From Escherichia phage rolling, in the sequence record NC_073056.1: DNA of 46,017 nt; one strand, 5' to 3'. Positions 5,832 through 46,017 of the stretch are shown here, one piece after another; the stretch's first letter is position 1, and each line of letters opens with the position of its first letter. The notes beneath the pieces were generated by a model. It searched no databases, was not told the DNA's origin, and worked only from the letters and a program-made list of their open reading frames with translations. The translations under genes were made by a program, and so were the position numbers.

Positions 5832-6110
5832 CTACGCGACCAATTCAGCAACCAATAAATTGCAGTCGGCTATGTTGTCTATAACGCGAACGTCAGCACC
5901 GCGGCGGGCCATCCGTTCATGTTCTCGCACCTGGTGCGGCTTCGGTTTTCCGCCGGGGCGCTTCACTTCGACGAATACTACTCTGCCGTTTATGATAATA
6001 ATCAGGTCGGGCGCACCTGCGCGCCCCTCCCATGCCAGTTTGCGGCAGAATCCGCCAACGGCTTTTACCAGCTTCATCAGGTGACTTTGTATCTTGCCTT
6101 CTGGAGTCAT
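5832..6110 (-). CDS. VRR-NUC domain nuclease
   Basis: PD-(D/E)xK-like GAPDLIIIINGRVVFVEVKRPGGKP signature; ATG start; ATGA overlap with next gene. Confidence 0.75.
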   Translation of the reverse strand: MTPEGKIQSHLMKLVKAVGGFCRKLAWEGRAGAPDLIIIINGRVVFVEVKRPGGKPKPHQVREHERMARRGADVRVIDNIADCNLLVAELVA

Positions 6111-9599: not shown

Positions 9600-9654
9600 T
9601 TTCCAATTCCTCATTTCACATGTATCGGGGTTATTAGAAGCCACCCCGTCCGGC

Positions 9655-9678
9655 TTGGTTGCTAATGTACTTGGTTGC
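9655..9678. promoter_or_regulatory. Pair of TTGGTTGC motifs in SSB upstream region
   Basis: TTGGTTGC at 9655-9662 and 9671-9678, between membrane protein gene and SSB gene. Confidence 0.4.
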
Positions 9679-12419: not shown

Positions 12420-12449
12420 ATAATAGATTGGTTGCATGCGGGGTGTCAA
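12420..12449 (-). promoter_or_regulatory. Leftward early promoter (TTGACA-N18-TATTAT)
   Basis: Minus-strand -35 TTGACA (plus 12444-12449), -10 TATTAT (plus 12420-12425); ATTGGTTGCA motif (12427-12436) fills the spacer. Confidence 0.55.
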
Positions 12450-15230: not shown

Positions 15231-15339
15231 TTTGTGCGCGTATTGGTTGCCGATATGGGAATTCCCATATCGCTAAAAGATTAAATTTTGCGCGCATTGG
15301 TTGCCATTTTGGGTGTTTTTAGCTGGTCGCATTGGTTGC
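15222..15339 (+). repeat. Tandem duplication of primase 3' end with three ATTGGTTGCC motifs and a 22-bp perfect palindrome
   Basis: AAAGATTAA..GCGCG.ATTGGTTGCC at 15222-15251 and 15276-15305 (~27/30 identical); palindrome CGATATGGGAATTCCCATATCG at 15251-15272; third ATTGGTTGC at 15331-15339. Confidence 0.7.
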
Positions 15340-15547: not shown

Positions 15548-15701
15548 CATAAAATCCGGGATTGCATAACGCACGGCAGCATGATGTGAATTGCGGTCGT
15601 CGATGAACTAGGCAACCAATGCGTGTTGAATAATGGAGAGTGAAAAATGCAGTTTGCAGTTGCAGCAGATAGCGATCAACTTTTTCATACGCATGATTAA
15701 T

Positions 15702-15742
15702 ATTGGTTGCATTCAGCCTGGCACCCTGCTAGATTGGTTGCA
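15702..15742 (+). promoter_or_regulatory. Promoter-like element with two ATTGGTTGCA motifs upstream of gene 15764
   Basis: ATTGGTTGC 15702-15710 and ATTGGTTGCA 15733-15742; TTGCAT-N17-TAGATT reads as a sigma70-like promoter. Confidence 0.45.
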
Positions 15743-16099: not shown

Positions 16100-16369
16100 A
16101 TGAGCCGTAGTCGAGCTAAACAGCTTTCTTGGCACATTCCCCTGCATTGCATACGAATATGGGCTAAGAACGCGATTGAGGGCGATTCCGTGTACTGGTG
16201 CTATCGCGATGACGTGAAGCCACTAACGCAGACTCGCTACTTGCACCAGTTCGCAGCACAACATGATTTCTATGTGCGGACTTCCTTGCAACCAATGGGA
16301 ATACGTATTACATTACGCCGGAAGCCCGCCGTTGAGCGGGTAGGCAAACACTGGAGACTGAGCAAATGA
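16100..16369 (+). CDS. Hypothetical protein (89 aa)
   Basis: ORF track; ATG with AAGGGG RBS. Confidence 0.65.
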   Translation: MSRSRAKQLSWHIPLHCIRIWAKNAIEGDSVYWCYRDDVKPLTQTRYLHQFAAQHDFYVRTSLQPMGIRITLRRKPAVERVGKHWRLSK

Positions 16370-18498: not shown

Positions 18499-18666
18499 AT
18501 GTTAAAAAGTATTCTTGATCATAACGCGAACGCACTTGCCGCACTGGCTAAAACGGAAGACCCAGGCGCGCGCGCCATTATCGCGGACACTATCAGTCAT
18601 GCGGGTGTCTTTGACGCGAAGCTGCCAAGCCCGCCACCGCCGGAAGAACCAGGCCCAGCGGCATAA
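18499..18666 (+). CDS. Hypothetical small protein (55 aa, Pro-rich C-terminus)
   Basis: Internal ATG (M80 of track ORF 18262..18666) with AGAGGA RBS. Confidence 0.45.
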   Translation: MLKSILDHNANALAALAKTEDPGARAIIADTISHAGVFDAKLPSPPPPEEPGPAA

Positions 18667-18671
18667 ACACG

Positions 18672-18697
18672 AAGCCCGGTTAATTCCGGGCTTTTTA
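18672..18697 (+). terminator. Intrinsic terminator
   Basis: AAGCCCGG-TTAATT-CCGGGCTT followed by T5. Confidence 0.65.
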
Positions 18698-18762
18698 TTG
18701 CTTGACTTGCAACCAACATAAGGGCCATACTGCAACCAATCAACGAGAAGGAGTAACACACT

Positions 18763-18843
18763 ATGACACGCAATGATATTTATGTACTGGCAATCTGGTC
18801 CGCCGCCGCATTCATCGGTATGGTTATTTGCGAATTGCTATAG
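18763..18843 (+). CDS. Putative 26-aa hydrophobic peptide
   Basis: ATG with AAGGAG RBS at ideal spacing; MTRNDIYVLAIWSAAAFIGMVICELL; below track cutoff. Confidence 0.3.
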   Translation: MTRNDIYVLAIWSAAAFIGMVICELL

Positions 18844-18904
18844 CCCGCCGCCATAAGGACCGTGGTATATTGTCCCCGGACCCATAATCAGGAAGTAAAT
18901 TAAT

Positions 18905-20047
18905 ATGCACCCTCAAACTAAAATTACCGACGAGCAATTGATCGCTGAATTGCAATCTGGCACTACCTCGAAAGATATTGCGAAGAAATACGGCATTGCA
19001 CTTCGTAATGTCTATATGCGCAAAGCCCGCCTGTCGAAGAAAGGTATTGGACACGGCAACGATGCTGTAATCCGTAAGCGCGTTGCCGATGGCTTCGGCG
19101 TTAAGCGTGTATCCGCCCTGGTGCGTGGCAATGGCGAGGAGGTAATGTCCTGGGTCATCACCGAGCAGGACAAGGAGCGCCAACTCGAAGCAATGCGCGC
19201 CGTTGTCGAGGGCATGAATAGCGAAATCACACCGGCAGCACCAGTGAGCGCTCCGCCAGTCCCGATCCAGGCGCTTGACCTGCTTAACCTGTATACCGTG
19301 TCTGACTTCCACCTGGGAATGTTGGCGTGGGGCGAGGAAACTGGCGAAGACTGGGATATGGCAATCGCCGAAGACCTTTTTTACCGCTGGTTTGTCGAGG
19401 CCTTCGCACGCGCACCGGACGCTGGCACTGCCGTTATCAATATCCTCGGTGATATGGCTCATTTTGATAGCCTTGATGCCGTCACGCCAGCCAGTGGTCA
19501 TGTACTGGATGCCGATACCCGCTACCAGAAGTTGGTCCGCTACATGATTCGCATGGTGCGCAACGTGGTTGAACTGGCGCTGCAAAAACACCATAAGGTC
19601 AAACTGCTAATCGTCCAGGGTAATCATGATGAGTCCGGTATGATTTGGCTGGCTGAGATGTTTAATACCCTGTACGAGAACGAGCCGCGCGTCGATGTGG
19701 ACACGTCCCCGGACGTATACAAAATGGTGCAGCACGGTAAAACAACGCTGTTCTTCCACCACGGACACAAAGCACGCTTTGACGCTATCGAGCCGGTCAT
19801 GATTTCTAAATTCAGACAGGCTTTCGGGTCCAGTGAGTACAGCTACGCGCACGTAGGCCACTTGCACCACCAAAAGATTGTAGAATCCCGCAACATGATT
19901 GTTGAACAGCACCGGACCCTTGCCGCGAAAGATGCATATGCAAGCCGCGGCGGTTGGCTGTCCGGTCGTAGTGCAAACGTCATCACCTATAGCGCCAACT
20001 ACGGCGAAGTAGCGCGCTTAACCATTAGCCCGGAAATGTTGAAATGA
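18905..20047 (+). CDS. HTH domain fused to calcineurin-like metallophosphoesterase
   Basis: N-terminal HTH TSKDIAKKYGIALRNVYMRKARL; phosphoesterase motifs GDMAHFD, QGNHDE, HHGHK, HVGHLHH. Confidence 0.75.
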   Translation: MHPQTKITDEQLIAELQSGTTSKDIAKKYGIALRNVYMRKARLSKKGIGHGNDAVIRKRVADGFGVKRVSALVRGNGEEVMSWVITEQDKERQLEAMRAVVEGMNSEITPAAPVSAPPVPIQALDLLNLYTVSDFHLGMLAWGEETGEDWDMAIAEDLFYRWFVEAFARAPDAGTAVINILGDMAHFDSLDAVTPASGHVLDADTRYQKLVRYMIRMVRNVVELALQKHHKVKLLIVQGNHDESGMIWLAEMFNTLYENEPRVDVDTSPDVYKMVQHGKTTLFFHHGHKARFDAIEPVMISKFRQAFGSSEYSYAHVGHLHHQKIVESRNMIVEQHRTLAAKDAYASRGGWLSGRSANVITYSANYGEVARLTISPEMLK

Positions 20048-23841: not shown

Positions 23842-24928
23842 TCAACATATGGCGGATCGTATGATTCGCCGTCACATCTTCACCCAGCGCCTGAGCAATG
23901 ATCAGGCGCTGCGGGTGTTGGCTATGTGGGAGAAGTTCCGACCCACGTTACTTGGCAAGCTGACCGAGTTACTTGATGGCAAAAAGTCCATGAATAACAA
24001 GGCACTGACCACACTGTTAACGCAAATAGACAAAACCGTCAAAACGGAACTGCGCACCGAGTTTAAGGCGCTGGCTGAAAGCCTTCAGGAGTTTGCCGAC
24101 ACCGAGGCTGATTATCTTGCCGATACATTAACGGCAGCGATCCAGCCTGCGGTAGCCGTACCGGCTGTTGAGGTTGTTGGCGTAGTGACTGGCGCGCAGA
24201 TTGCAGCCACGGCTATGAAAAACCCGTTCCAGGGAAACACCATGATGCAATGGCCTGATTCACTTTCTGAGTGGATCAGGACGCAGATCGGGAATCAGGT
24301 GCGCGCTGGATTCATCCAGGGCAAGCCGACTATGGAAATTATCGCGGACGTAAAGCGCGCTCTCGGCGGTCGTAGCGCGCAAGCTATCTCAAGTGTTGTT
24401 AAGTCCGCAGTAAACCACTATGCGGCGACCGCCCGCGAGTTATTGGTGAAAGCTAATGACGATATTCTCGAAGGTCGCCAATGGTTGGCTACATTGGATA
24501 CGCACACATCACCAATGTGCCAACTACGCGATCGCCTGTTTTATCCTGTTGACGTCACTCCCGACACCAAAGGAAAGCGCGGCGGGAAAGTGGTGGCTGG
24601 ATCACAATATGGCGCTGGTCCGGGCAAGCTACATTATTGCTGCCGTTCGACGGAGACGTGGAAAGTTAAAGGCATGGAAGATTGGCCCAGTGGTAAGCGT
24701 CCGGCACTGAAGGCTGACGCGGGTCGATTGCTGAGTGAGCAGGTCGACGCTCAGACTGATTTCTTCTCATGGGTGCAGCGCCAGCCGCGCCATATTCTGG
24801 AGGAATTATATGGGGTGCAGCGCGCAGACCAGATTATGCGCGGCGTGAAAGTGCCTAAGATGTTCACCGATACCGGCGAACTAATGACTATTGCACAGCT
24901 TAAAAACCGGGGGTTATGGCGTGATTAA
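23825..24928 (+). CDS. Head morphogenesis protein (Mu F / SPP1 gp7-like)
   Basis: Position after portal; conserved-looking HYAATARELL...WLATLDTHTSPMC segment. Confidence 0.75.
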   Translation: MARTINQHMADRMIRRHIFTQRLSNDQALRVLAMWEKFRPTLLGKLTELLDGKKSMNNKALTTLLTQIDKTVKTELRTEFKALAESLQEFADTEADYLADTLTAAIQPAVAVPAVEVVGVVTGAQIAATAMKNPFQGNTMMQWPDSLSEWIRTQIGNQVRAGFIQGKPTMEIIADVKRALGGRSAQAISSVVKSAVNHYAATARELLVKANDDILEGRQWLATLDTHTSPMCQLRDRLFYPVDVTPDTKGKRGGKVVAGSQYGAGPGKLHYCCRSTETWKVKGMEDWPSGKRPALKADAGRLLSEQVDAQTDFFSWVQRQPRHILEELYGVQRADQIMRGVKVPKMFTDTGELMTIAQLKNRGLWRD

Positions 24929-25229
24929 ATATGCGGCTATTGGACTGGTTATCGGTCTGGCGGTTGGATTCTGGCAGGGTGATTCCTACCGCACTGGCGT
25001 TGTGGCGAAAGCGGCGCAAGAAGCGCAAGCGAAAGCCCAACGGCAGCAAACTAAGGTTGTTGAGGGGTCGGTGAAAGCTGAGCAGGCCCGCGACGTGGAA
25101 TACCGGACTATCACGAAAGAGGTTGTAAAATATGTTACGCGTCCTAACCGTCCTGATTGTAGTTTTGATGCTGAGCGCGTGCGGATCAAGCAAAGCGCCA
25201 TCGACGCCGCTAACCGAGTCGGTCTATAG
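24921..25229 (+). CDS. i-spanin (Rz-like)
   Basis: N-terminal TM AAIGLVIGLAVGFW then Ala/Gln-rich coiled coil; start uncertain (in-frame GTG 24921 or track start 24891); contains overlapping o-spanin. Confidence 0.65.
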   Translation: MIKYAAIGLVIGLAVGFWQGDSYRTGVVAKAAQEAQAKAQRQQTKVVEGSVKAEQARDVEYRTITKEVVKYVTRPNRPDCSFDAERVRIKQSAIDAANRVGL

Positions 25230-25362
25230 ACCGCCTTGCACATTTGAGAATGCCTCGGCAGACCCAGACGAAGACTTGCTTGTTGATGTTAAAAATATGG
25301 AGTGCGGATCTAAGCTGCGGGCGCAAGTGCTGGAGTTGCAGAAAATAATTCTGGGGCCGTGA
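25132..25362 (+). CDS. o-spanin (Rz1-like lipoprotein), overlapping Rz in +1 frame
   Basis: Signal peptide with lipobox LSAC, Pro-rich mature part; ATG with AGAGG RBS. Confidence 0.75.
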   Translation: MLRVLTVLIVVLMLSACGSSKAPSTPLTESVYRPPCTFENASADPDEDLLVDVKNMECGSKLRAQVLELQKIILGP

Positions 25363-25955: not shown

Positions 25956-26717
25956 GCGCGGAATACCGCAAATCTCGTTGAGTGTTTTCACGTCCAGCGC
26001 CACCGCCGTGGACTTCGTCTTGTTCTGATATGGAATGAACTGTTCAACTTCAGGCCACGCCTTGATCAGCTTCTTATCGGTATTGTGCATATCCAGCACG
26101 CCGGTAACAGTTAGCTTGAACGCGTCATACTTTGCGCGCAACTCGCGGCGGGCCTTGTCATTTCGGTCCAGGCGCTTGCAGAAATCATGATCGGCCGGGT
26201 AGTCTACGCGTCCGCGCGGGAGATATATCGGCAGCACTTTTCCGTCCTCATCCACTTCGCACACTGACGCGAGCATAATTTCCGCGTACCCCGGTACAAT
26301 ATCGCTAACGTCAGGCGCGAGCGTATTCATATATTTCTCTTCCCAGTATCCGCGATGCCGGCGGTAGCTGTATCCGTCACCGCTCATATACAGGGATCGG
26401 ATGTTACCGCCTGCGTTGATTTCGAAATTGTCGCAGTAAACGCACCCAATACCCTTCTGACGGTCTTTGTTATAGCTATACGTCGCCTTGTCGGTGTAAA
26501 CGCTGACGCCATACATCTGCGACTGGTTATTGCGGATTTCTTCGATATATGCGCGTAGCTCGGCGAACGTGCGAATGCCTTTTGGCATACAGTCCAGCGT
26601 AATTGCGTACGCCAGGTCGCGAGAGTCCATCATGATTGATTTGGCTTCAGTCGCGATTTCGTGGTCGCGCAGGATGTTAGCCAGAATCTGGTTTTTAATG
26701 TCTTTTGTCAGTCGCAT
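25953..26717 (-). CDS. Hypothetical protein (254 aa), moron gene antisense to the late operon
   Basis: Track ORF 25953..26762 from internal ATG (M16) with GAGGA RBS; no family recognised. Confidence 0.65.
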   Translation of the reverse strand: MRLTKDIKNQILANILRDHEIATEAKSIMMDSRDLAYAITLDCMPKGIRTFAELRAYIEEIRNNQSQMYGVSVYTDKATYSYNKDRQKGIGCVYCDNFEINAGGNIRSLYMSGDGYSYRRHRGYWEEKYMNTLAPDVSDIVPGYAEIMLASVCEVDEDGKVLPIYLPRGRVDYPADHDFCKRLDRNDKARRELRAKYDAFKLTVTGVLDMHNTDKKLIKAWPEVEQFIPYQNKTKSTAVALDVKTLNEICGIPR

Positions 26718-26739: not shown

Positions 26740-26811
26740 TGCAACCAATATAGTGCAACCAATACCTGTATTGCAAGCGAATTTTGCGATTATTTTTATC
26801 GCTGATAATAT
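26740..26811. promoter_or_regulatory. Back-to-back divergent promoters (leftward for moron genes, rightward for scaffold/capsid)
   Basis: Leftward: TTGCAA (26771-26776) N18 TATATT (plus 26747-26752), with TGCAACCAAT at 26740-26749 and 26754-26763; rightward: TTGCGA (26784-26789) N16 TAATAT (26806-26811). Confidence 0.5.
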
Positions 26812-37540: not shown

Positions 37541-38148
37541 CCACATTTAAATTGTACGGCGTCTTAGGACGTCGTTTTGGTAAAGTGCATAAGCTGGACT
37601 GCTTCACACCTGGCGAGGGTATCACCGGCCTATGCGTGAAGTTGCCAGGCTTACAGGACTTTCTAATGTCGGCCCACCTGGAAAACATGATGTTCAAGGT
37701 GCGCAAGGGTAATCACACAATGACCGGCTACGACGAGTTGGGTGAGTTCCACGGCGACCGCGTAGTTACCATCGCGCCGGTTATGACTGGTGCTAAAAGC
37801 GGACTTGGACAATTGCTGGCTGGCGTAGCTATCGTGGTGGCGTCTTTCTACACTGGCGGGCTTGCCGCTGCCGCTTTCGGTGCTTCCGCGGCGACCGCTG
37901 CCGCTATTGGGACGGCGACGTTTTCTTTTGGTATGTCGCTTGCGCTGGGCGGCGCTATGCAATTGCTGTCACCGCAACCAAAAGGATTGCAGACACGGCA
38001 GGACGTGGATAACAAGGCGTCGTATGCGTTTGGCGGGCCTGTAAACACGACCGCGCAAGGTACGGCACTTGGTGTATTATGGGGCGAGCGTGAGATCGGC
38101 GGCGCTATTATTTCAGCCGGAATTGTAACCGAGGATTTGAACGAATGA
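37531..38148 (+). CDS. Tail assembly protein gpI-like
   Basis: Gly/Ala-rich hydrophobic C-terminus; synteny between K-like and J-like genes. Confidence 0.7.
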   Translation: MAMTTFKLYGVLGRRFGKVHKLDCFTPGEGITGLCVKLPGLQDFLMSAHLENMMFKVRKGNHTMTGYDELGEFHGDRVVTIAPVMTGAKSGLGQLLAGVAIVVASFYTGGLAAAAFGASAATAAAIGTATFSFGMSLALGGAMQLLSPQPKGLQTRQDVDNKASYAFGGPVNTTAQGTALGVLWGEREIGGAIISAGIVTEDLNE

Positions 38149-41100
38149 CGATTGTATACGACGTCACGGGTCATAAAGGCGGAGGTGGCAAACAGCACAC
38201 CCCACAGGAGACGCCTGATAGCCTGCATTCGCTGGCTAAAATCCGCATCTTGCTCGCACTGGGCGAGGGCGAATTTGAAGGCAGTCCCGACCCTAACGAA
38301 TTACGGCAGCGTGTATACCTGGACGGCACACCGATCCAGAACGCCGACCTGTCGGATAACTTCCCCGGCGCGCGCGTGGAGTTCCGCCCCGGCACGCAGC
38401 ACCAGGATGTGATTCACGGTTTTTCAGCGGTGGAAAGCGAGCAAACAGTAGGCGTAAAACTGGAGAACGGCGCGCCGTGGGTGCGCCAGATTTCGGACAC
38501 CAGTTTGGACGCCGTGCGCATTCGAATCGGTATTCCGGCCCTGTACACCAACGAAGATAATGGCGACCTGGTGGGCGGGCGCATCGACTATAAAATCGTT
38601 GTGTATACCGACAATGCTGATCCGCGGGAGTTTACATTCGCTGCCGTTGGTAAAACAATGTCGCTGTATGAGCGAGATCACCGCATCGAATTACCGCCGA
38701 ACGTTAACACCGGCTGGCGCGTGGAGGTGCACCGCACAACGGCTGATTCCACATCGGCAAAAGTGGTCAACGATATCCGGGTACAATCCATTACAGAGAT
38801 TATCGACGCCCGCCTGAGATACCCGCTAACGGCGCTGTTGTTCGTGGAGTTCGACGCTAAGGCGTTCCAGAACATCCCGCGCGTGTCCATCAAGTGCAAA
38901 GGCCGCAAAGTGCTGGTCCCGAACAACTATGACCCGATTAATCATACCTATTCGGGGGACTGGGATGGCACATTTAAACGCGCATGGACGGATAACCCTG
39001 CGTGGCACTGGTACGATATTTGTATTACTGAGCGCTTCGGCCTTGGTCGTCGTGTCAAGCCGCAAATGCTAAACCGCTATGCGCTATACCAGATCGCCCA
39101 GCGCTGCGATCAGAAAGTCAGTGACGGCAACGGCGGACAGGAAATCCGATTTAAGAATGATATGTACATTCAGTCGCAGACCGACGCATGGACCGTGCTG
39201 AAGGATTTAGCGGCAATCTTTGCAGGAATGACCTGGTGGGGCAACCAGATGTTGAATATTGTCAGTGACCAGCCGGTCGCAGCGGTATCGCATACTATCA
39301 CCAACGCCTCGGTCATTGATGGTCGATTCGACTACGCATCGGGAAGCCAGAAAACTCGGTATTCCACGTTCGCGGTAGCATACGGCAACCCGAAGAACCA
39401 CTATGATGACGCCATCGCAACGGGCCAGCGTGTCGAACTGGTGCGCCGCCATAAGATTAACCGCCTTGATATCACGGCGATCGGCTGTACGCGAGAATCT
39501 GAAGCGCAACGCCGCGGTCACTGGGCGCTAATCTCCAACCAGCTTGACCAGCAAGTTAGCTTCAAGGTTGGCATGGAGGGGCTATTCTTTATTCCGGGGA
39601 GCGTAGTCTCGATCGCAGATACTAACATTTCTGGTGGCTTCGAGACACGCGGCGGACGCCTGTTGTCAGATCCGGGCACGCGTGCCGTGCTGAACACGGA
39701 CAGCGAAATCACGTTCCGCCCTGGTGATAAATTCCTGGTGCGCACCGATAGCGGTAATGTGGAGACTCGCGAGATTGCCAGCGTCAACGGCAACCAGGTC
39801 ACGCTAAAAACCGCACTGGACTCCGACCCGATTCCCGATCAGCCGTTTTGCGTGGATGGCGACGATATCCAGTTGCAGAAGTTCCGCATCACCGATCTGG
39901 AATATGACGACGCTACCAGCACTTTTTCGGTGCGCGGGATTGAGTACAACGATAGCAAATATGATGCCGTTGATAATGGCGCGCGTCTTGATCCAGGTAT
40001 CTTCACTCAAGTGCCGGACGGCGTGATGAAGGGGCCAGAATCCGTTACTATCACCCCGTCGCAGATTTCATCGCAAGGCCAGCTAATCACCAACGTAGAT
40101 ATTGTTTTTCCGCCGGTGAAGGATGCCGTTGTGTACGAAATCCAGTGGCGACGTACCAGCTTGCAGAATATGGAAGTACAGTGGGGCAACGACTGGGTTA
40201 ACATCCCCCGCACGGCGTCGAACGGCGCGCACATCCCGAACGTGTTTTCTGGTAACTACCAGGCACGCGTCCGCGCTATCGGTATGGGCGAGATTTCATC
40301 CCCGTGGGTATCATCTGCAATCACGCCGGTAGAGGGTCGTCTTGGCGGGCTTAACGCGCCTATCATCACCAACGCGATTTCGGGTCTTCACCAAATTTTG
40401 TGGAAGTGGAACCACAACAACGCCGCGACGGATATTTCGTATACCGAGCTTGAAGTGCGCAAGCTGGGTGAGACTGAATGGAAATTCTTGACCAACGTCC
40501 CATATCCGGGGTCGGACTATGCGCAAACGTCGCTGGAGTTCGGGATCTACCAGCAGTTGCGCGCACGCGTAGCGGATAAAATCGGCAACCTGTCGGACTG
40601 GTCAGACCCGTTTGACGGTCAGGTGAGTGACAAAGTTGACGAGTACATGCAGGGGCTTGATGACGAGTTCTTGACTTCCGAGGACGGTAAACACTTCCAG
40701 GAAGCAATCGACACCATTCCGCAGGGCATTTATGAGGCCATGCTCACCGACGCGCAGCAGTTGTTTAACGCCCGCTCCGAGTATCAAGGGATTTATGCGG
40801 AAATCAAGGTGGCGTACAACGTTGCGGTGGACGCAAACGAGGCCGTAGCGCAACTGGAAACGCTGATCGGCACACGCCTTGACGATGCGGAAGCGTCAAT
40901 CCACACGTTGCAGACTGCGCAAAGCACGCACGAACAAGCGTTCGCCCAGTATCAACAAACTGTTGCCGCTAAGTTCGGGGAACAGGAAGCTGCCATCCAG
41001 CAGGTACAAACGGCAACGGCAGACGTAGCGGGCGCGCTGGCTGAGTATAAGACCCAGGTAGCGGCACAGTTCGGTCAGCAGTCCACAGCGATCGAGCAGA

Positions 41101-41564
41101 AGATGACGTCTTCGTTTAACCATGCTGGTGGAAGCGCCACATACCGCCTTAAAGCTGGCGTGACGTATAACGGGACTTACTATGATGCCGGTATGCAGCT
41201 TTCCGTTGTGGCGGAAGGCGGCGCGGTTAAATCGCGTATTGCGTTCAAGGCGGACCAGTTCTACATCATGCACCCATCTAATGGGTCGCTTTCGTCCGCG
41301 TTTATCGTTGACGGTGGTCAGGTGTACATCGACACCGCCCGCATCAAGAATGCGTCCATTAACTTTGCGCAGATAACGGACACGTTGCAGTCCAACAACT
41401 ACGACGGCAGTACTCGAGGATGGCGCTTAGGTAAGGATGGAACGTTTATCAACCTGGGGACTGGAAGCGGTGGTGGTACAAAGCAGACCAACACCAACTA
41501 CAGCGTTAAAGACGAGAACGGTGTTTTACGCGTGCAACTTGGCGAGCTTACTGGTCGCTGGTAG
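38145..41564 (+). CDS. Central tail fibre / host specificity protein, gpJ-like
   Basis: 1139 aa, size and position match lambda J. Confidence 0.85.
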   Translation: MTIVYDVTGHKGGGGKQHTPQETPDSLHSLAKIRILLALGEGEFEGSPDPNELRQRVYLDGTPIQNADLSDNFPGARVEFRPGTQHQDVIHGFSAVESEQTVGVKLENGAPWVRQISDTSLDAVRIRIGIPALYTNEDNGDLVGGRIDYKIVVYTDNADPREFTFAAVGKTMSLYERDHRIELPPNVNTGWRVEVHRTTADSTSAKVVNDIRVQSITEIIDARLRYPLTALLFVEFDAKAFQNIPRVSIKCKGRKVLVPNNYDPINHTYSGDWDGTFKRAWTDNPAWHWYDICITERFGLGRRVKPQMLNRYALYQIAQRCDQKVSDGNGGQEIRFKNDMYIQSQTDAWTVLKDLAAIFAGMTWWGNQMLNIVSDQPVAAVSHTITNASVIDGRFDYASGSQKTRYSTFAVAYGNPKNHYDDAIATGQRVELVRRHKINRLDITAIGCTRESEAQRRGHWALISNQLDQQVSFKVGMEGLFFIPGSVVSIADTNISGGFETRGGRLLSDPGTRAVLNTDSEITFRPGDKFLVRTDSGNVETREIASVNGNQVTLKTALDSDPIPDQPFCVDGDDIQLQKFRITDLEYDDATSTFSVRGIEYNDSKYDAVDNGARLDPGIFTQVPDGVMKGPESVTITPSQISSQGQLITNVDIVFPPVKDAVVYEIQWRRTSLQNMEVQWGNDWVNIPRTASNGAHIPNVFSGNYQARVRAIGMGEISSPWVSSAITPVEGRLGGLNAPIITNAISGLHQILWKWNHNNAATDISYTELEVRKLGETEWKFLTNVPYPGSDYAQTSLEFGIYQQLRARVADKIGNLSDWSDPFDGQVSDKVDEYMQGLDDEFLTSEDGKHFQEAIDTIPQGIYEAMLTDAQQLFNARSEYQGIYAEIKVAYNVAVDANEAVAQLETLIGTRLDDAEASIHTLQTAQSTHEQAFAQYQQTVAAKFGEQEAAIQQVQTATADVAGALAEYKTQVAAQFGQQSTAIEQKMTSSFNHAGGSATYRLKAGVTYNGTYYDAGMQLSVVAEGGAVKSRIAFKADQFYIMHPSNGSLSSAFIVDGGQVYIDTARIKNASINFAQITDTLQSNNYDGSTRGWRLGKDGTFINLGTGSGGGTKQTNTNYSVKDENGVLRVQLGELTGRW

Positions 41565-41567
41565 TAT

Positions 41568-41586
41568 GGGGCTTCGGCCCCTTTTT
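41568..41586 (+). terminator. Intrinsic terminator after J-like gene
   Basis: GGGGC-TTCG-GCCCC followed by T5. Confidence 0.65.
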
Positions 41587-41599
41587 AACGAGGTTATTT

Positions 41600-41902
41600 A
41601 TGGCATTCGGTATCGCAACGTGGGACGCGCAAGGACGCCCAAACAACTACGGCATTAAACCGGTAAGCGTGATCGGAAGGATTCATCTTGCGGAAGGACA
41701 AAAATCAGGCGCATGGTCATTCCCTGTGCCGGCGGGGATGAAGGTCGGATACGTGGTCGCACTGGATAAAGGCGCGGTCGGGCCAGGACGCAGAATAACC
41801 GCCAGCGGGAACACTATCACGGTTTCCGCGGCAAGTGAGGTTGGTGGCGGGGTTTACTCCGCATCTGAATGTGACGTTATTGTTTTTGTGGAGCGAGCAT
41901 AA
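41600..41902 (+). CDS. Hypothetical tail-associated protein (100 aa)
   Basis: ORF track; RBS; location in tail-fibre module. Confidence 0.55.
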   Translation: MAFGIATWDAQGRPNNYGIKPVSVIGRIHLAEGQKSGAWSFPVPAGMKVGYVVALDKGAVGPGRRITASGNTITVSAASEVGGGVYSASECDVIVFVERA

Positions 41903-42576
41903 TGGCTAATTACGGCGCGTTGATTGACTTACCAAACGGCAACCCGTTTATCACGCCAGAATCGACGCCGTTTTGTCTATTCCGCCGTGTGGTTGTTGGG
42001 TCTTCGGCTAACGGCACTGCGCAGTCGGCGGCTGCCGATATTAATTTGGGCGGTGACTACCCTGCAATAGCGTTTGTGAAAACTACGAACACCGCCCAGC
42101 CGACCGTCGTAGGGTCTTCTCGCGTTGGTAATGTGGTGAAGGTGAGCGCCAGCAATCCATTTGGGCAAGGATTCACGATGACGGCATACATCTTTGCCAT
42201 ATTCCCACAGACCCTTCCGCGGTGGGGCTTCGCTATTTGGGATAAGACGGGGAGGCTAGTGCTGACGAACGAGAGCCGGGTACTAAGCGATTTAGTTACC
42301 GTCGGATCGCCAGGCGCTAACGGGGGGATTAACATTGACCAGACGCTAAACGGCAGCTACGCCGTCGCTCCGGGCATATTGGGGTCTACGCTGATCCGGT
42401 TTTTTGTGCAGGGCCAGCCGCAGGTAATATCGGTAACGGCGTACACGGGGGCCAGATTTGATGGGTCGCGAACGCGTATATCGGCAGCGTCGTCGGGGAA
42501 CGCCACGGGGGATGTGGTTGGGTATACTAACAACGGCAACGCGATTATGGCGATTAACACTGCCAATTATGATTGA
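41902..42576 (+). CDS. Hypothetical tail-associated protein (224 aa)
   Basis: ORF track; Gly/Ser/Thr-rich. Confidence 0.6.
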   Translation: MANYGALIDLPNGNPFITPESTPFCLFRRVVVGSSANGTAQSAAADINLGGDYPAIAFVKTTNTAQPTVVGSSRVGNVVKVSASNPFGQGFTMTAYIFAIFPQTLPRWGFAIWDKTGRLVLTNESRVLSDLVTVGSPGANGGINIDQTLNGSYAVAPGILGSTLIRFFVQGQPQVISVTAYTGARFDGSRTRISAASSGNATGDVVGYTNNGNAIMAINTANYD

Positions 42577-42579
42577 AGA

Positions 42580-42600
42580 AAGCCCCGAAAGGGGCTTATT
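42580..42600. terminator. Hairpin between convergent genes (putative bidirectional terminator)
   Basis: AAGCCCC-GAAA-GGGGCTT; overlaps the stop of the minus-strand lipoprotein gene. Confidence 0.5.
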
Positions 42601-42814
42601 TGCAGGTTGTGCTTTTGAAATGGCCTACAGACACGTACTGGAAACTAAACGGATAGCCAGCCCGTAACATTTTATGACCGCTAACGTCCGCAACCCCAAA
42701 CACAGGGACTGAGTACTCCATACCACTATTCATGTATGTTGCGTCGCAGATTTTAGACGGCATATTGGCACAACCGGACAAAAGAACCACACAAATCATA
42801 ATTAAAGTTTTCAT
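42596..42814 (-). CDS. Small outer-membrane lipoprotein, Cor/Llp-like putative superinfection-exclusion protein
   Basis: Internal ATG (M22) with AGGAG RBS; signal peptide with lipobox LLSGC; 72 aa; antisense, next to tail fibre genes. Confidence 0.65.
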   Translation of the reverse strand: MKTLIMICVVLLSGCANMPSKICDATYMNSGMEYSVPVFGVADVSGHKMLRAGYPFSFQYVSVGHFKSTTCK

Positions 42815-42894
42815 GGTATCATCTCCTATATTTGGTTGGGTTTTAGTATTGCACCGCTCAACCAAGAATGCAACCAATTTATGAGGATTCAGCT

Positions 42895-44919
42895 ATGGCA
42901 GCGGGTACACTATCCGTAACGAATAACAGCAAGGCGGTAGTCGGTGTCGGCACGACGTTCACCGCGTTTAAAGCTGGCGACTTCTTAACGTTGGTGGTGG
43001 GGCAAGTCCCTTACACTGTTGCTATCGCGTCCGTCGAAAGCGACACCGCGCTTACGCTGGTGCTGCCGTTCGACGGCCCCACGGCAACCGGCCTTGCCTG
43101 GGATGGCGTTGCGCGTGATACCATGTCCCTGGCGACGATGGGCGTAACAGTCCAGGCGCAGAAAGCATTTCGCTTGATGATTGCAGATGAAAACAACTGG
43201 CGTGCCATCTTCGGCGACGCTGAAGAAATCACAGTGACGTTACCAAACGGGCAGGTTATGCAGGGCATGTCATGGGGCTATCTGTCAAGTCTTCTAAAAG
43301 ACGTTGACCCGGTGGAGCTTCAGAATATTGCCAACCAGGCGGTGAGCGCGAAAAACCAGGCTGTAACCGCGAAAAACGATGCTGTGTCTGCCAAGAATGA
43401 TGCGCAGACTGCGAAGACTGCCGCAGAAACAGCGCGCACGCAAGCCCAGTCGGCTAAGACCGCCGCAGAGTCAGCACGTGACGACGCGCAGACGGCTAAG
43501 ACTGCCGCAGAAACAGCACGCACCCAGGCACAGACCGCGAAGACCGCCGCAGAAACCGCCAAGGGTGCGGCGGAAGACGCCCGCGATGAGGCGAAGCAAT
43601 ATGCAGAGCAAGCCGGAGCACCATATAAGCAGGTATTACAACCGCTACCAGACGTGTGGATTCCGTTTAACGATTCGCTGGATATGCTCGCAGGCTTCGC
43701 GCCCGGATACAAGACGGTTACGGTAGCCGACGACGAGGTTACTATGCCGAGCGACAAGGTGGTGTCGCTCAAGCGCGCATCAACGGCAACATATATTAAC
43801 AAGTCCGGCGAGTTTAAAATCGCAGAGATTGACGAGCCGAGATTCGAAAAATACGGCCTGCTCATTGAAGGCCAACGCACTAACCACATCATCAACGGGG
43901 GCGCTCCGGCTGGCTGGGGCCACAGCACATCGGTTGGCGTGGTTACGGGTACAGATGCTTTCGGTTTCTTGTATGGAAAGTTTGGTATCGGCCAGGGCGA
44001 CGTGGGCAGTACGACTGCGCTTAACCTGGCTTCCGTAACATCAGCAAACAGTCTGGATACTTCCGGCGTCGATAAGTATGTAACGGCGTCATGCCGCTTT
44101 CGGTCCGACAAGGATGTACGTCTTCGTGTGCGTTTTGCAGAAGGCGCGGATCAAGGCAGCATGGCTTTCTCTGGCGACGCGTACATTAAATTAAGCGATT
44201 TGTCCGTGTCTAAGACGGGTGTCGCGGCAGACCGCATTACCGTAGAAGTCGAGAAAGACGAAGCCACCGGATGGAATCGTGCGGTGGTAATGCTGCAAGC
44301 TACCACGGCGCTGGTGAACGCGCAGATCCAGATCTCGCCAGTGAGCAGTTATGCTGCCGGTGATTATATCGAACTGGCAACTCCGCAGGTTGAGTTAGGG
44401 ATCGGGGCGTCTTCATATATCATCTCCGGCACATCTCCAACCACACGCGCTAGCGATATGGTGACGGTACCGGCTAACCGCAACCTGTATAACCTGCCGT
44501 TTACGGTGCTTGTAGAAGTTCACAAGAACTGGTCTAAGGCGCCGAACGCAGCGCAGCGTGTATTCGACACCGGCGGTCATCAATCGGGTGCGGCTATTAT
44601 CCTGGGATTCGGGTCTGGCGCTATTGACGGGTATCCGTACTGCGACATCGGCGGTGCTAACAGACGTTTGAATGAAAACGCAGGGCTTAAGCATATGGTT
44701 ATGGGTATGCGTGTGAAAGAAAACCAGGACACTTGCGCGGTGAGTAACGGCATTCTTTCGACCGAATCGAAAACCACATGGACCTACCTGAAAGGGTCTG
44801 CGACGCTGCGAATCGGGGGTCAAACAACGACTGGAGACAGACACCTGTTCGGGCACGTCCGTAACTTCCGTATCTGGCATAATGCGCTGACCGACCTACA
44901 AATGGGGGAATTAGTGTGA
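42895..44919 (+). CDS. Tail fibre protein with internal Ala/Thr/Lys-rich tandem repeats
   Basis: Internal ATG (M10) with GAGGA RBS; repeats AKNDA.. / QTAKTAAETARTQ. Confidence 0.75.
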   Translation: MAAGTLSVTNNSKAVVGVGTTFTAFKAGDFLTLVVGQVPYTVAIASVESDTALTLVLPFDGPTATGLAWDGVARDTMSLATMGVTVQAQKAFRLMIADENNWRAIFGDAEEITVTLPNGQVMQGMSWGYLSSLLKDVDPVELQNIANQAVSAKNQAVTAKNDAVSAKNDAQTAKTAAETARTQAQSAKTAAESARDDAQTAKTAAETARTQAQTAKTAAETAKGAAEDARDEAKQYAEQAGAPYKQVLQPLPDVWIPFNDSLDMLAGFAPGYKTVTVADDEVTMPSDKVVSLKRASTATYINKSGEFKIAEIDEPRFEKYGLLIEGQRTNHIINGGAPAGWGHSTSVGVVTGTDAFGFLYGKFGIGQGDVGSTTALNLASVTSANSLDTSGVDKYVTASCRFRSDKDVRLRVRFAEGADQGSMAFSGDAYIKLSDLSVSKTGVAADRITVEVEKDEATGWNRAVVMLQATTALVNAQIQISPVSSYAAGDYIELATPQVELGIGASSYIISGTSPTTRASDMVTVPANRNLYNLPFTVLVEVHKNWSKAPNAAQRVFDTGGHQSGAAIILGFGSGAIDGYPYCDIGGANRRLNENAGLKHMVMGMRVKENQDTCAVSNGILSTESKTTWTYLKGSATLRIGGQTTTGDRHLFGHVRNFRIWHNALTDLQMGELV

Positions 44920-45173
44920 AAGACTTAACGCTGAAGTTTGAAAGCAAGGCCGCTTTTGCAGCCTTCAAAGCGCAATTGAATTGGGACGAGAACGAGGCGT
45001 TGCAGGATGATATTCTGCTTGATGTCATCGGCAACGTGTATGAGGGTGATGAGGATAATCTCGTTGCCGTTGAGGGGTACTTCGTTAACGTGCGCATTCT
45101 TGACGACGACCACGGCATTAACTTTGAGCAGTATGCCGTTGTGTTAGACTCCCCACTTCGTCAATGGGCTTAA
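44916..45173 (+). CDS. Hypothetical protein (85 aa), possible tail fibre assembly/chaperone
   Basis: ORF track; start overlaps upstream stop (GTGA); acidic. Confidence 0.5.
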   Translation: MKDLTLKFESKAAFAAFKAQLNWDENEALQDDILLDVIGNVYEGDEDNLVAVEGYFVNVRILDDDHGINFEQYAVVLDSPLRQWA

Positions 45174-45184
45174 GAGGGTAAATC

Positions 45185-46017
45185 ATGGTTACTAAAACAA
45201 ACATCCCCGCGGATATTACGGCGCTGCAAAATGCTACTTCATCATTGTCGTCTGACAAGATGGATAAATCCGACAACCTTGCCGGGTTAACTGACTTGTC
45301 CAAGTCGCGGAATAACCTGGGTTTAGGAGCGTTGGCGACTAAAGATTCGGCGGCGCTAAACTCCCCAGATACGACCGGTATTCTGCCCTTAGATAAGGGC
45401 GGTTTAGGCACTGGTACCATCCCTGGCGCACGGGAGACGATGCATATTTATGGTCATGGCGCTACATTCGGGGTCATAAATAATATCCTCACATACTTCA
45501 ACAATGTTGCGGATAACGGCGGACTCTTCTCGTTTCGAGATGGTGCCGTTGACGCCACGAACACCTACAAATTCGGCTCAGCAATACTGTTTCGCACAGC
45601 CGACACCTACGGACTGTTAAGTGTTGACCACAACAGCGGAAACGTTAGAGCATCCGGTGGTATAGTTTCTGGTGGGATCGCGACCTCAGCATACATCAAC
45701 AACATGTGGGGTACGCGTAACACCACCGTAGACAGTAACGGGTTTATTAAAACCGCGTCGCCCATCGTCAAGATCTACAGTGACGGCGTCGCGGAGACTA
45801 ACGACGAGGCAGAAGGCGTTACGGTGACCCGCATATCTGCAGGGGTGTATGTTGTGGAGGGGTGTCTAGGCCTCAACGCGGACCCATCCTGGGGCGGGCC
45901 TGACGGCGGGATTGAGATTCCGACGGACGCTAACAAGCAGCCTCGTTTATGGGTTGATTATAGCGTGCGCGCGGACGGCTCGGTGGAAGTTCGCACATAC
46001 CACCGCACACACCCACA
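45185..46017 (+). CDS. Tail fibre / tailspike protein, N-terminal part (runs off window end)
   Basis: ATG 45185 with RBS; open to 46017; N-terminus ...LSKSRNNLGLGALA resembles tail-fibre N-terminal motifs. Confidence 0.6.
   Translation, partial: MVTKTNIPADITALQNATSSLSSDKMDKSDNLAGLTDLSKSRNNLGLGALATKDSAALNSPDTTGILPLDKGGLGTGTIPGARETMHIYGHGATFGVINNILTYFNNVADNGGLFSFRDGAVDATNTYKFGSAILFRTADTYGLLSVDHNSGNVRASGGIVSGGIATSAYINNMWGTRNTTVDSNGFIKTASPIVKIYSDGVAETNDEAEGVTVTRISAGVYVVEGCLGLNADPSWGGPDGGIEIPTDANKQPRLWVDYSVRADGSVEVRTYHRTHP

Follow-up and report, generated by a model that had tools for sequence, protein, structure and literature searches.

A Cor-family lipoprotein gene, antisense to the tail genes of a lytic Dhillonvirus, and its probable role in superinfection exclusion at FhuA

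Introduction

A short open reading frame lies on the minus strand, against the tail genes of Escherichia phage rolling (NC_073056.1). Is it a gene, and what does its product do? The original prediction, made from the letters of the DNA, proposed a superinfection-exclusion lipoprotein of the Cor/Llp type. We followed up this proposal with family profiles, a structural model, and comparisons with related phages. The window is the whole stretch of DNA that was analysed, with a length of 46,017 nucleotides. The features discussed are collected in Table 1.

According to our analysis, the phage is a lytic Dhillonvirus (an E. coli siphovirus), and the product of the gene is very likely a superinfection-exclusion lipoprotein of the Cor family. 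This protein would block the receptor FhuA in the manner of Llp.

Table 1. Features of the cor region and promoter-associated boxes, in positions of the window.
Feature	Position	Strand	Remarks
cor gene	42596..42814	-	ATG 42814-42812; 72 codons; stop TAA 42598-42596
Parts of the cor product			signal peptide, residues 1-14; lipobox LSGC, codons 42781-42770; mature protein, Cys15-Lys72
Shine-Dalgarno AGGAG	42823..42827	-	8 nt upstream of ATG
Candidate cor promoter	42845..42878	-	in the 80-bp cor-fibre intergenic region
Imperfect inverted repeat TTGGTTGAG ... CCCAACCAA	42832..42865	.	around the -10 element
Probable terminator hairpin AAGCCCC-UUUC-GGGGCUU	42580..42597	.	folding and compensatory changes
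J-like tail tip gene	38145..41564	+	last ~120 codons (from 41208) in the block 100% identical to KarlBarth
PHROG 557 'outer membrane protein', first cassette gene	41600..41902	+	100 aa; E 9.9e-33
PHROG 425 'membrane associated protein', second cassette gene	41902..42576	+	224 aa; E 5.1e-70
Lateral tail fibre gene	42895..44919	+	divergent from cor; real start 42895; tail fibre PHROGs
ATTGGTTGC(A) sites	1329-1348, 2889-2914, 5836-5856, 9654-9678, 12427-12435, 15242-15339		
ATTGGTTGC(A) sites, continued	15612-15620, 15702-15741, 16288-16296, 18709-18740, 26741-26763, 42870-42878		

Results and discussion

The antisense frame is a gene with its own signals

The ORF listing gives a coding span of 42814..42599 on the minus strand. 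It agrees exactly with the 72-aa antisense frame and the coordinates of the original prediction. The product is a prolipoprotein of 72 aa with the sequence MKTLIMICVVLLSGCANMPSKICDATYMNSGMEYSVPVFGVADVSGHKMLRAGYPFSFQYVSVGHFKSTTCK; it begins MKTLIMICVVLLSGCANMPSK and ends TTCK. The lipoprotein signal that had been read in it is also present. It consists of Lys2, the hydrophobic core TLIMICVVLL, and the lipobox L12-S13-G14-C15, which fits the consensus [LVI][ASTVI][GAS]C. Under the Lol sorting rule of E. coli, Asp at position +2 decides the destination of a lipoprotein. Residue +2 of Cor is alanine instead of Asp, so this rule predicts that the mature protein is sorted to the outer membrane.

A longer frame of 93 aa with a TTG start exists on the same strand and lacks a ribosome-binding site. 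The ATG start is used in all eight annotated Dhillonvirus orthologues that we fetched. The prediction that the antisense gene has a ribosome-binding site of its own held, and this element is kept as AGGAG, AGGGG or AGAGG in nine Dhillonviruses. The codons are under purifying selection. More precisely, eight Dhillonvirus orthologues have a mean dN of 0.060 and a dS of 0.71 (dN/dS 0.085).

The candidate promoter begins with a ATTGGTTGCA box (42878-42869), whose TTGCAT (42873-42868) would be the -35 element. It continues with a spacer of 17 nt and an extended -10 element, formed by TG (42853-42852), c and AATACT (42850-42845). Transcription is predicted to start near 42838. This arrangement (ATTGGTTGCAT, 17 nt, AATACT after TGc) is conserved in nine phages. 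Likewise, the DNA alignment of nine Dhillonviruses conserves the box AATTGGTTGCA and the stretch GGTG(C/T)(A/G)ATA(C/T)T. Motifs of the ATTGGTTGCA type had been noticed upstream of the gene. We find one full copy, the box of the promoter, and two partial copies of TTGGTTG (direct at 42865-42859, inverted at 42832-42838). The motifs do exist, but they occur genome-wide and are not specific to cor. The inverted repeat around the -10 element is a possible operator, or might provide extra half-sites of the box. In the nine phages it shows one compensatory double change (Dru_SM5) against three one-sided disruptions.

At the other end of the gene, the final two bases of the cor stop codon (42597-42596) also belong to a hairpin. 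This hairpin makes up almost all of the 19 bp that separate cor from the convergent PHROG 425 gene (stop at 42576). On the cor strand it is followed by UCUUCAAUC, and its U-tract is weak. Folding of the two strands gives -15 and -16.8 kcal/mol, with z values of -3.4 and -2.7. Three phages keep the stem by different double changes (AGGCCCC/GGGGCCT, AAACCCC/GGGGTTT and AATCCCC/GGGGATT). The hairpin is probably a bidirectional terminator.

A strict consensus scan for promoters and terminators called neither the cor promoter nor the cor terminator. The promoter was missed because its -35 element matches the consensus at only three of six positions. We accept both candidates because of their conservation and covariation.

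A short frame, antisense within a late operon and with signals that consensus scans pass over, could be a chance frame that is never expressed. The conservation pattern refutes this reading, whose probability we consider negligible. A dN/dS of 0.085 at a dS of about 0.7 does not agree with it. Nor do the ribosome-binding site and promoter box conserved in nine phages, the terminator stem kept by compensatory changes, and a family of hundreds of members (267 at E <= 0.001). The frame is confirmed as a real gene, cor.

Assignment of the product to the Cor family

Two independent curated models recognize the protein over nearly its full length. PHROG 1119, "Cor superinfection exclusion protein", matches with an E of 9.7e-28 (residues 1-72 on profile positions 1-75 of 78). 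The NCBIfam equivalog NF047972, "phage exclusion lipoprotein Cor", gives 58.8 bits, its cutoff being 31 (residues 2-71 on positions 2-76 of 78). In end-to-end alignments, the protein is 51% identical to T1 Cor and 39-43% identical to the Cor proteins of HK022, phi80, N15 and mEp234. It is clear from these matches that it belongs to the Cor family.

The depth of the family depends on the search used. A single-sequence, word-indexed search returned six close relatives only, and an exhaustive phmmer search returned 13 representatives. The relatives from the profile search, which gave the count of 267, include many from enterobacterial prophages and many named "cor protein" or "phage exclusion lipoprotein Cor". 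One phmmer match, P0016 (1359 aa), was rejected as spurious; on inspection it is a low-complexity protein with Ig-like repeats.

Compared with the characterised Cor proteins, the lipobox Gly-Cys15, Cys23, Cys71 and the motif R51-AGYPF-56 are invariant. The Cor proteins of T1, phi80, HK022, N15 and mEp167 share with the window protein the lipobox, the two mature cysteines and RAGYPF. Across 78 aligned members, C15, C23, C71, G53 and P55 are invariant, and A52, Y54 and F56 are kept in at least 90% of the sequences. The N-terminal linker of the mature protein is three residues shorter in the window Cor than in lambdoid Cor.

The Pfam search found no Cor family model. Its sole match was O_Spanin_T7, on the signal peptide and below threshold (E 0.094, 13 bits against a cutoff of 25). 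Together with matches to Rz-like PHROGs (E 0.13-0.21), this would be the case for a lysis lipoprotein, that is, the outer-membrane subunit of a spanin. These weak matches cover residues 1-21 only, which is the signal peptide, while the full-length match is to Cor. Moreover, the i-spanin/o-spanin pair of the phage lies elsewhere (24921-25359), and no partner i-spanin gene stands beside cor. An o-spanin identity is effectively refuted and extremely improbable.

The exclusion function assigned to the Cor protein of the window is supported by homology. The assignment itself is already known. Dhillonvirus orthologues, with Envy, Gluttony, Lust and Pride among them (KX5343xx accessions), are annotated as "super-infection exclusion protein cor". 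Curated family models exist, and the link of the cassette with FhuA has been published. In KarlBarth (Bas17), a 100% identical protein, bas17_0027, is annotated as "hypothetical protein". Because the family, the position and the FhuA link have been described, the cor gene of the window opens no new question in itself.

Predicted fold and likeness to T5 Llp

We modelled the protein with AlphaFold2. With an alignment of 78 sequences, the model has a mean pLDDT of 84, with values above 90 for residues 21-70, and contains five beta-strands. An earlier run on a shallow alignment (six relatives) gave a pLDDT of 60. The best PDB match of the model is 8A60_B, the Llp of T5 with FhuA, with a probability of 1.00, TM scores of 0.50/0.57, an rmsd of 2.8 A, and 27% identity over 51 columns; the Foldseek E-value is modest (0.03). 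As modelled, the window Cor superposes on Llp as a small beta-sheet fold. In BFVD, the first match is a Dhillonvirus SIE protein, and ranks 2-6 are T5-like lipoproteins or 'receptor-blocking protein' entries. At the sequence level the link between Cor and Llp is marginal. The phmmer E-value is 0.085, and a search with the Cor profile (hmmsearch) reaches 0.0048 over residues 1-45, which include the signal peptide.

Previous works point in the same direction. Llp and Cor are about 20% identical, including the disulphide, and Cor was considered to act probably like Llp (PMC9586334). Predicted Cor structures match Llp and were placed with it in one structural family (bioRxiv 10.64898/2026.03.26.714494). 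An AF3 model docks the Cor of the T1-like phage KanT1 on the periplasmic face of FhuA (PMC13164509).

The likeness extends beyond the fold. The Llp of T5 is a small outer-membrane lipoprotein that targets FhuA, as is predicted for Cor, and its gene, like cor, stands beside the receptor-binding genes. Both proteins have a cysteine shortly after the lipobox. T5 differs from the window in having no PHROG 557/425 partner genes, and its receptor-binding protein is the unrelated pb5. By likeness to T5 Llp, Cor would bind the plug of FhuA. The proposal of a Cor/Llp-like exclusion protein finds support in PHROG 1119, NF047972, the gene cassette described below, and Llp as best PDB match.

The cassette around cor

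The original prediction placed the gene between the J-like and the side-fibre genes. It does border the fibre gene, from which it diverges, but two plus-strand genes separate it from J. The nearer of these, the PHROG 425 gene, is convergent with cor. The resulting order, J, PHROG 557, PHROG 425 and cor, is the same in T1, mEp234, phi80 and N15, where J is likewise followed by the PHROG 557/425 cassette. In the record of HK022, the 1 kb between J and cor is free of annotated genes, and only the order J then cor is visible there. The known Cor proteins are associated with FhuA-dependent phages, an association that the Cor of the window probably shares. The gene of the window is inverted with respect to the tail genes, as in T1, and has a candidate promoter of its own.

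The orientation of cor follows the lifestyle of the phage in this small sample. In the lytic T1 and the Dhillonviruses, it runs against the tail genes, with an upstream region of its own. In the temperate HK022, phi80, N15 and mEp234, it has the orientation of J and follows the cassette.

The structural module has a second antisense 'island', at 25956-26717 on the minus strand. It encodes a 254-aa PHROG 1965 protein of unknown function and is directly preceded by two ATTGGTTGCA boxes (26741 and 26755). With an upstream signal of the same kind as that of cor, this gene is possibly also an early or accessory one.

Receptor and probable exchange of the host-recognition module

The window is a circularly permuted Dhillonvirus genome, 85-92% identical overall to KarlBarth. 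The structural half (20374-45000, the part queried) is closest to vB_EcoS-101114BS4 and WF5505, at about 96%. The region around cor has a different relationship. From the C-terminus of J through cor (41208-43041), the window is 100% identical to KarlBarth. The identity continues at about 99.7% to around 45226, with flanks of about 90%. The block 41208-45226 spans the C-terminus of J, the two cassette genes, cor, the lateral fibre gene and the next small ORF. Such a pattern suggests that the host-recognition module was exchanged recently.

Two further differences from KarlBarth were observed. One is a 21-bp indel at 43333-43353, inside the Ala/Lys/Thr-rich repeats of the lateral fibre (AKNDA... 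/ TAKTAAETARTQAQ). The other is a region of about 1.4 kb (18625-20043) that is absent from KarlBarth and holds a 380-aa ORF (18905-20047, plus strand). By eye, this ORF has an N-terminal stretch like a helix-turn-helix and metallophosphatase-like motifs (GDxxH, GNHD, HHGH). PTXU06 has an ORF of equal length (1143 nt, 'similar to SO1 gp58') at an apparently equivalent position; the two are likened by length and annotated position.

The terminal receptor of KarlBarth (Bas17) is FhuA, by experiment, and the same holds for Bas16 (supplementary table of PMC8594841). JLBYU60 and Teewinot are also FhuA-dependent Dhillonviruses (PMC10373560). Bas16, JLBYU60 and Teewinot all carry cor. In the BASEL collection, a survey of 2026 reported the cor cassette in the FhuA-using phages of the Drexlerviridae and of Dhillonvirus (PMC13164509). 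From KarlBarth we infer that the phage of the window uses FhuA as well, the window genome itself being a different mosaic.

Dhillonviruses with other receptors have a different small lipoprotein in the slot of cor. We compared the window (42770-42934) with the LptD-dependent Oekolampad (L016:5230-5464) and the BtuB-dependent PTXU06 (L017:27150-27360). The 5' end of the fibre gene, the box, the -10 element, the ribosome-binding site and the whole signal peptide (MKTLIMICAVLLSGC) are nearly identical to those of the window. A signal peptide of the form MKTLIMIC(A/V)VLLSGC is thus common to FhuA-, LptD- and BtuB-type Dhillonviruses. Among the three receptor types, the similarity stops right after the lipobox, and the mature exclusion domains differ. 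The end of homology at this point places the recombination junction of the receptor module within the exclusion gene. With hhalign, the Cor profile gave an E of 0.013 (probability 3%) with the mature domain of the BtuB type and 0.21 with that of the LptD type; we claim no homology for either.

The lipoprotein of the LptD type is known as Rtp45-type (RTP, Oekolampad/Bas18; PHROG 4281) and occupies exactly the genomic slot of cor in Dhillonviruses. Its promoter region and ribosome-binding site are like those of cor, and its signal peptide nearly so (MKTLIMICAVLLSGC, against MKTLIMICVVLLSGC in the window). The mature domain, PHROG 4281 in Oekolampad, is unrelated to Cor by the hhalign result above. 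Its target is LptDE and not FhuA (PMC12685063). In Oekolampad, the gene of the receptor-binding protein is on the same antisense strand as the exclusion gene.

The conserved flanks, together with the block identical to KarlBarth, indicate that the receptor-binding genes and the exclusion domain were swapped as one cartridge. The alignments show this pattern of joint exchange between conserved flanks in the phages compared. The BASEL authors report that receptor loci move horizontally, which fits an exchange of cartridges.

The target of Cor could nevertheless be another one. A lipoprotein with the Cor fold might act on a different TonB-dependent transporter, or through outer-membrane proteins in general, without locking FhuA. 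Cor-like proteins occur in BtuB-dependent phages (PMC13164509), so that membership of the family does not fix the target alone. The faint similarity of the BtuB-type Dhillonvirus lipoprotein to the Cor profile goes in the same sense. Earlier work reports that Cor interacts with other outer-membrane proteins and implicates them in Cor exclusion (Arguijo-Hernandez 2018, cited in PMC13164509). The preprint that joins Cor and Llp in one structural family calls the molecular mechanism of Cor unresolved (bioRxiv 10.64898/2026.03.26.714494). Against another target, the window has the complete FhuA-type cassette, and its module is identical to that of the experimentally FhuA-dependent KarlBarth. In addition, the BtuB- and LptD-type Dhillonviruses carry clearly different mature domains in the slot of cor. 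We consider a different target or route improbable, and an Llp-like block of FhuA is the reading that we prefer.

A promoter-associated box across the genome

The motif upstream of cor is over-represented in the genome. The window contains 25 occurrences of TTGGTTG, for an expectation of 6.1 +/- 2.9. The 9-mer ATTGGTTGC has 16 exact copies, against about 0.35 expected. According to a homology-based gene map, 14 of these 16 copies are intergenic. Several form close pairs, and most of them aim at the downstream gene. PTXU06 carries 15 copies of the box and KarlBarth 14, the latter at matching positions with regard to order, strand and spacing. Six of the 16 exact boxes are followed, exactly 17 nt past their TTGCNN part, by a -10-like hexamer (background of 1.3% per position, binomial P of about 4e-8). 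Probably, the ATTGGTTGCA box either serves as the -35 region in a class of phage promoters or is the site of a regulator. Literature searches for TTGGTTGC(A) brought up primers and unrelated text only, and no description of the motif emerged from the literature that was searched.

At 1329-1348, in a region without a homologue in KarlBarth, two boxes form the near-perfect palindrome GCAACCAAT-agg-TTGGTTGC. This pair could be a divergent promoter pair or the binding site of a dimer.

The box, the ribosome-binding site and the signal peptide form a fixed expression 'socket' in front of the swapped exclusion domains, an architecture that is directly visible. A broader reading adds that the box is the site of a phage-encoded factor, either an activator, as with the MotA box of T4, or a repressor, and that it defines a promoter class throughout the Dhillonviruses. 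Taken as a whole, we regard this reading as tentative and rather unlikely; the part concerning a dedicated factor is speculation. If it is true, the ATTGGTTGCA promoter class would drive cor, the PHROG 1965 gene of the antisense island, and several small early genes.

Proposed mechanism and meaning of the finding

The preferred reading gives the following sequence of events. After infection, a sigma-70-type promoter of its own would drive cor, counter to the direction of the tail operon that surrounds it. The 72-aa precursor would be exported, and the mature protein of 58 residues would form a small beta-sheet domain, probably closed by a Cys23-Cys71 disulphide. This domain would bind FhuA, a TonB-dependent transporter, on its periplasmic side and lock it as the Llp of T5 does, in such a way that the surface loops stop accepting phage receptor-binding proteins. 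Further FhuA-dependent phages (the phage itself, T1, T5, phi80 and relatives) would be kept out of the infected cell. Likewise, the progeny would not be wasted on FhuA in the debris of lysis. For the gene of the window, we infer the action on FhuA, the time of expression and the promoter. The inactivation of FhuA by other Cor proteins and the mechanism of Llp are taken from the literature.

Finally, the 'hypothetical protein' bas17_0027 of KarlBarth is confirmed as a Cor lipoprotein that matches the FhuA specificity of its phage. Such assignments could serve to predict cross-exclusion in phage cocktails and to predict receptors from sequence.
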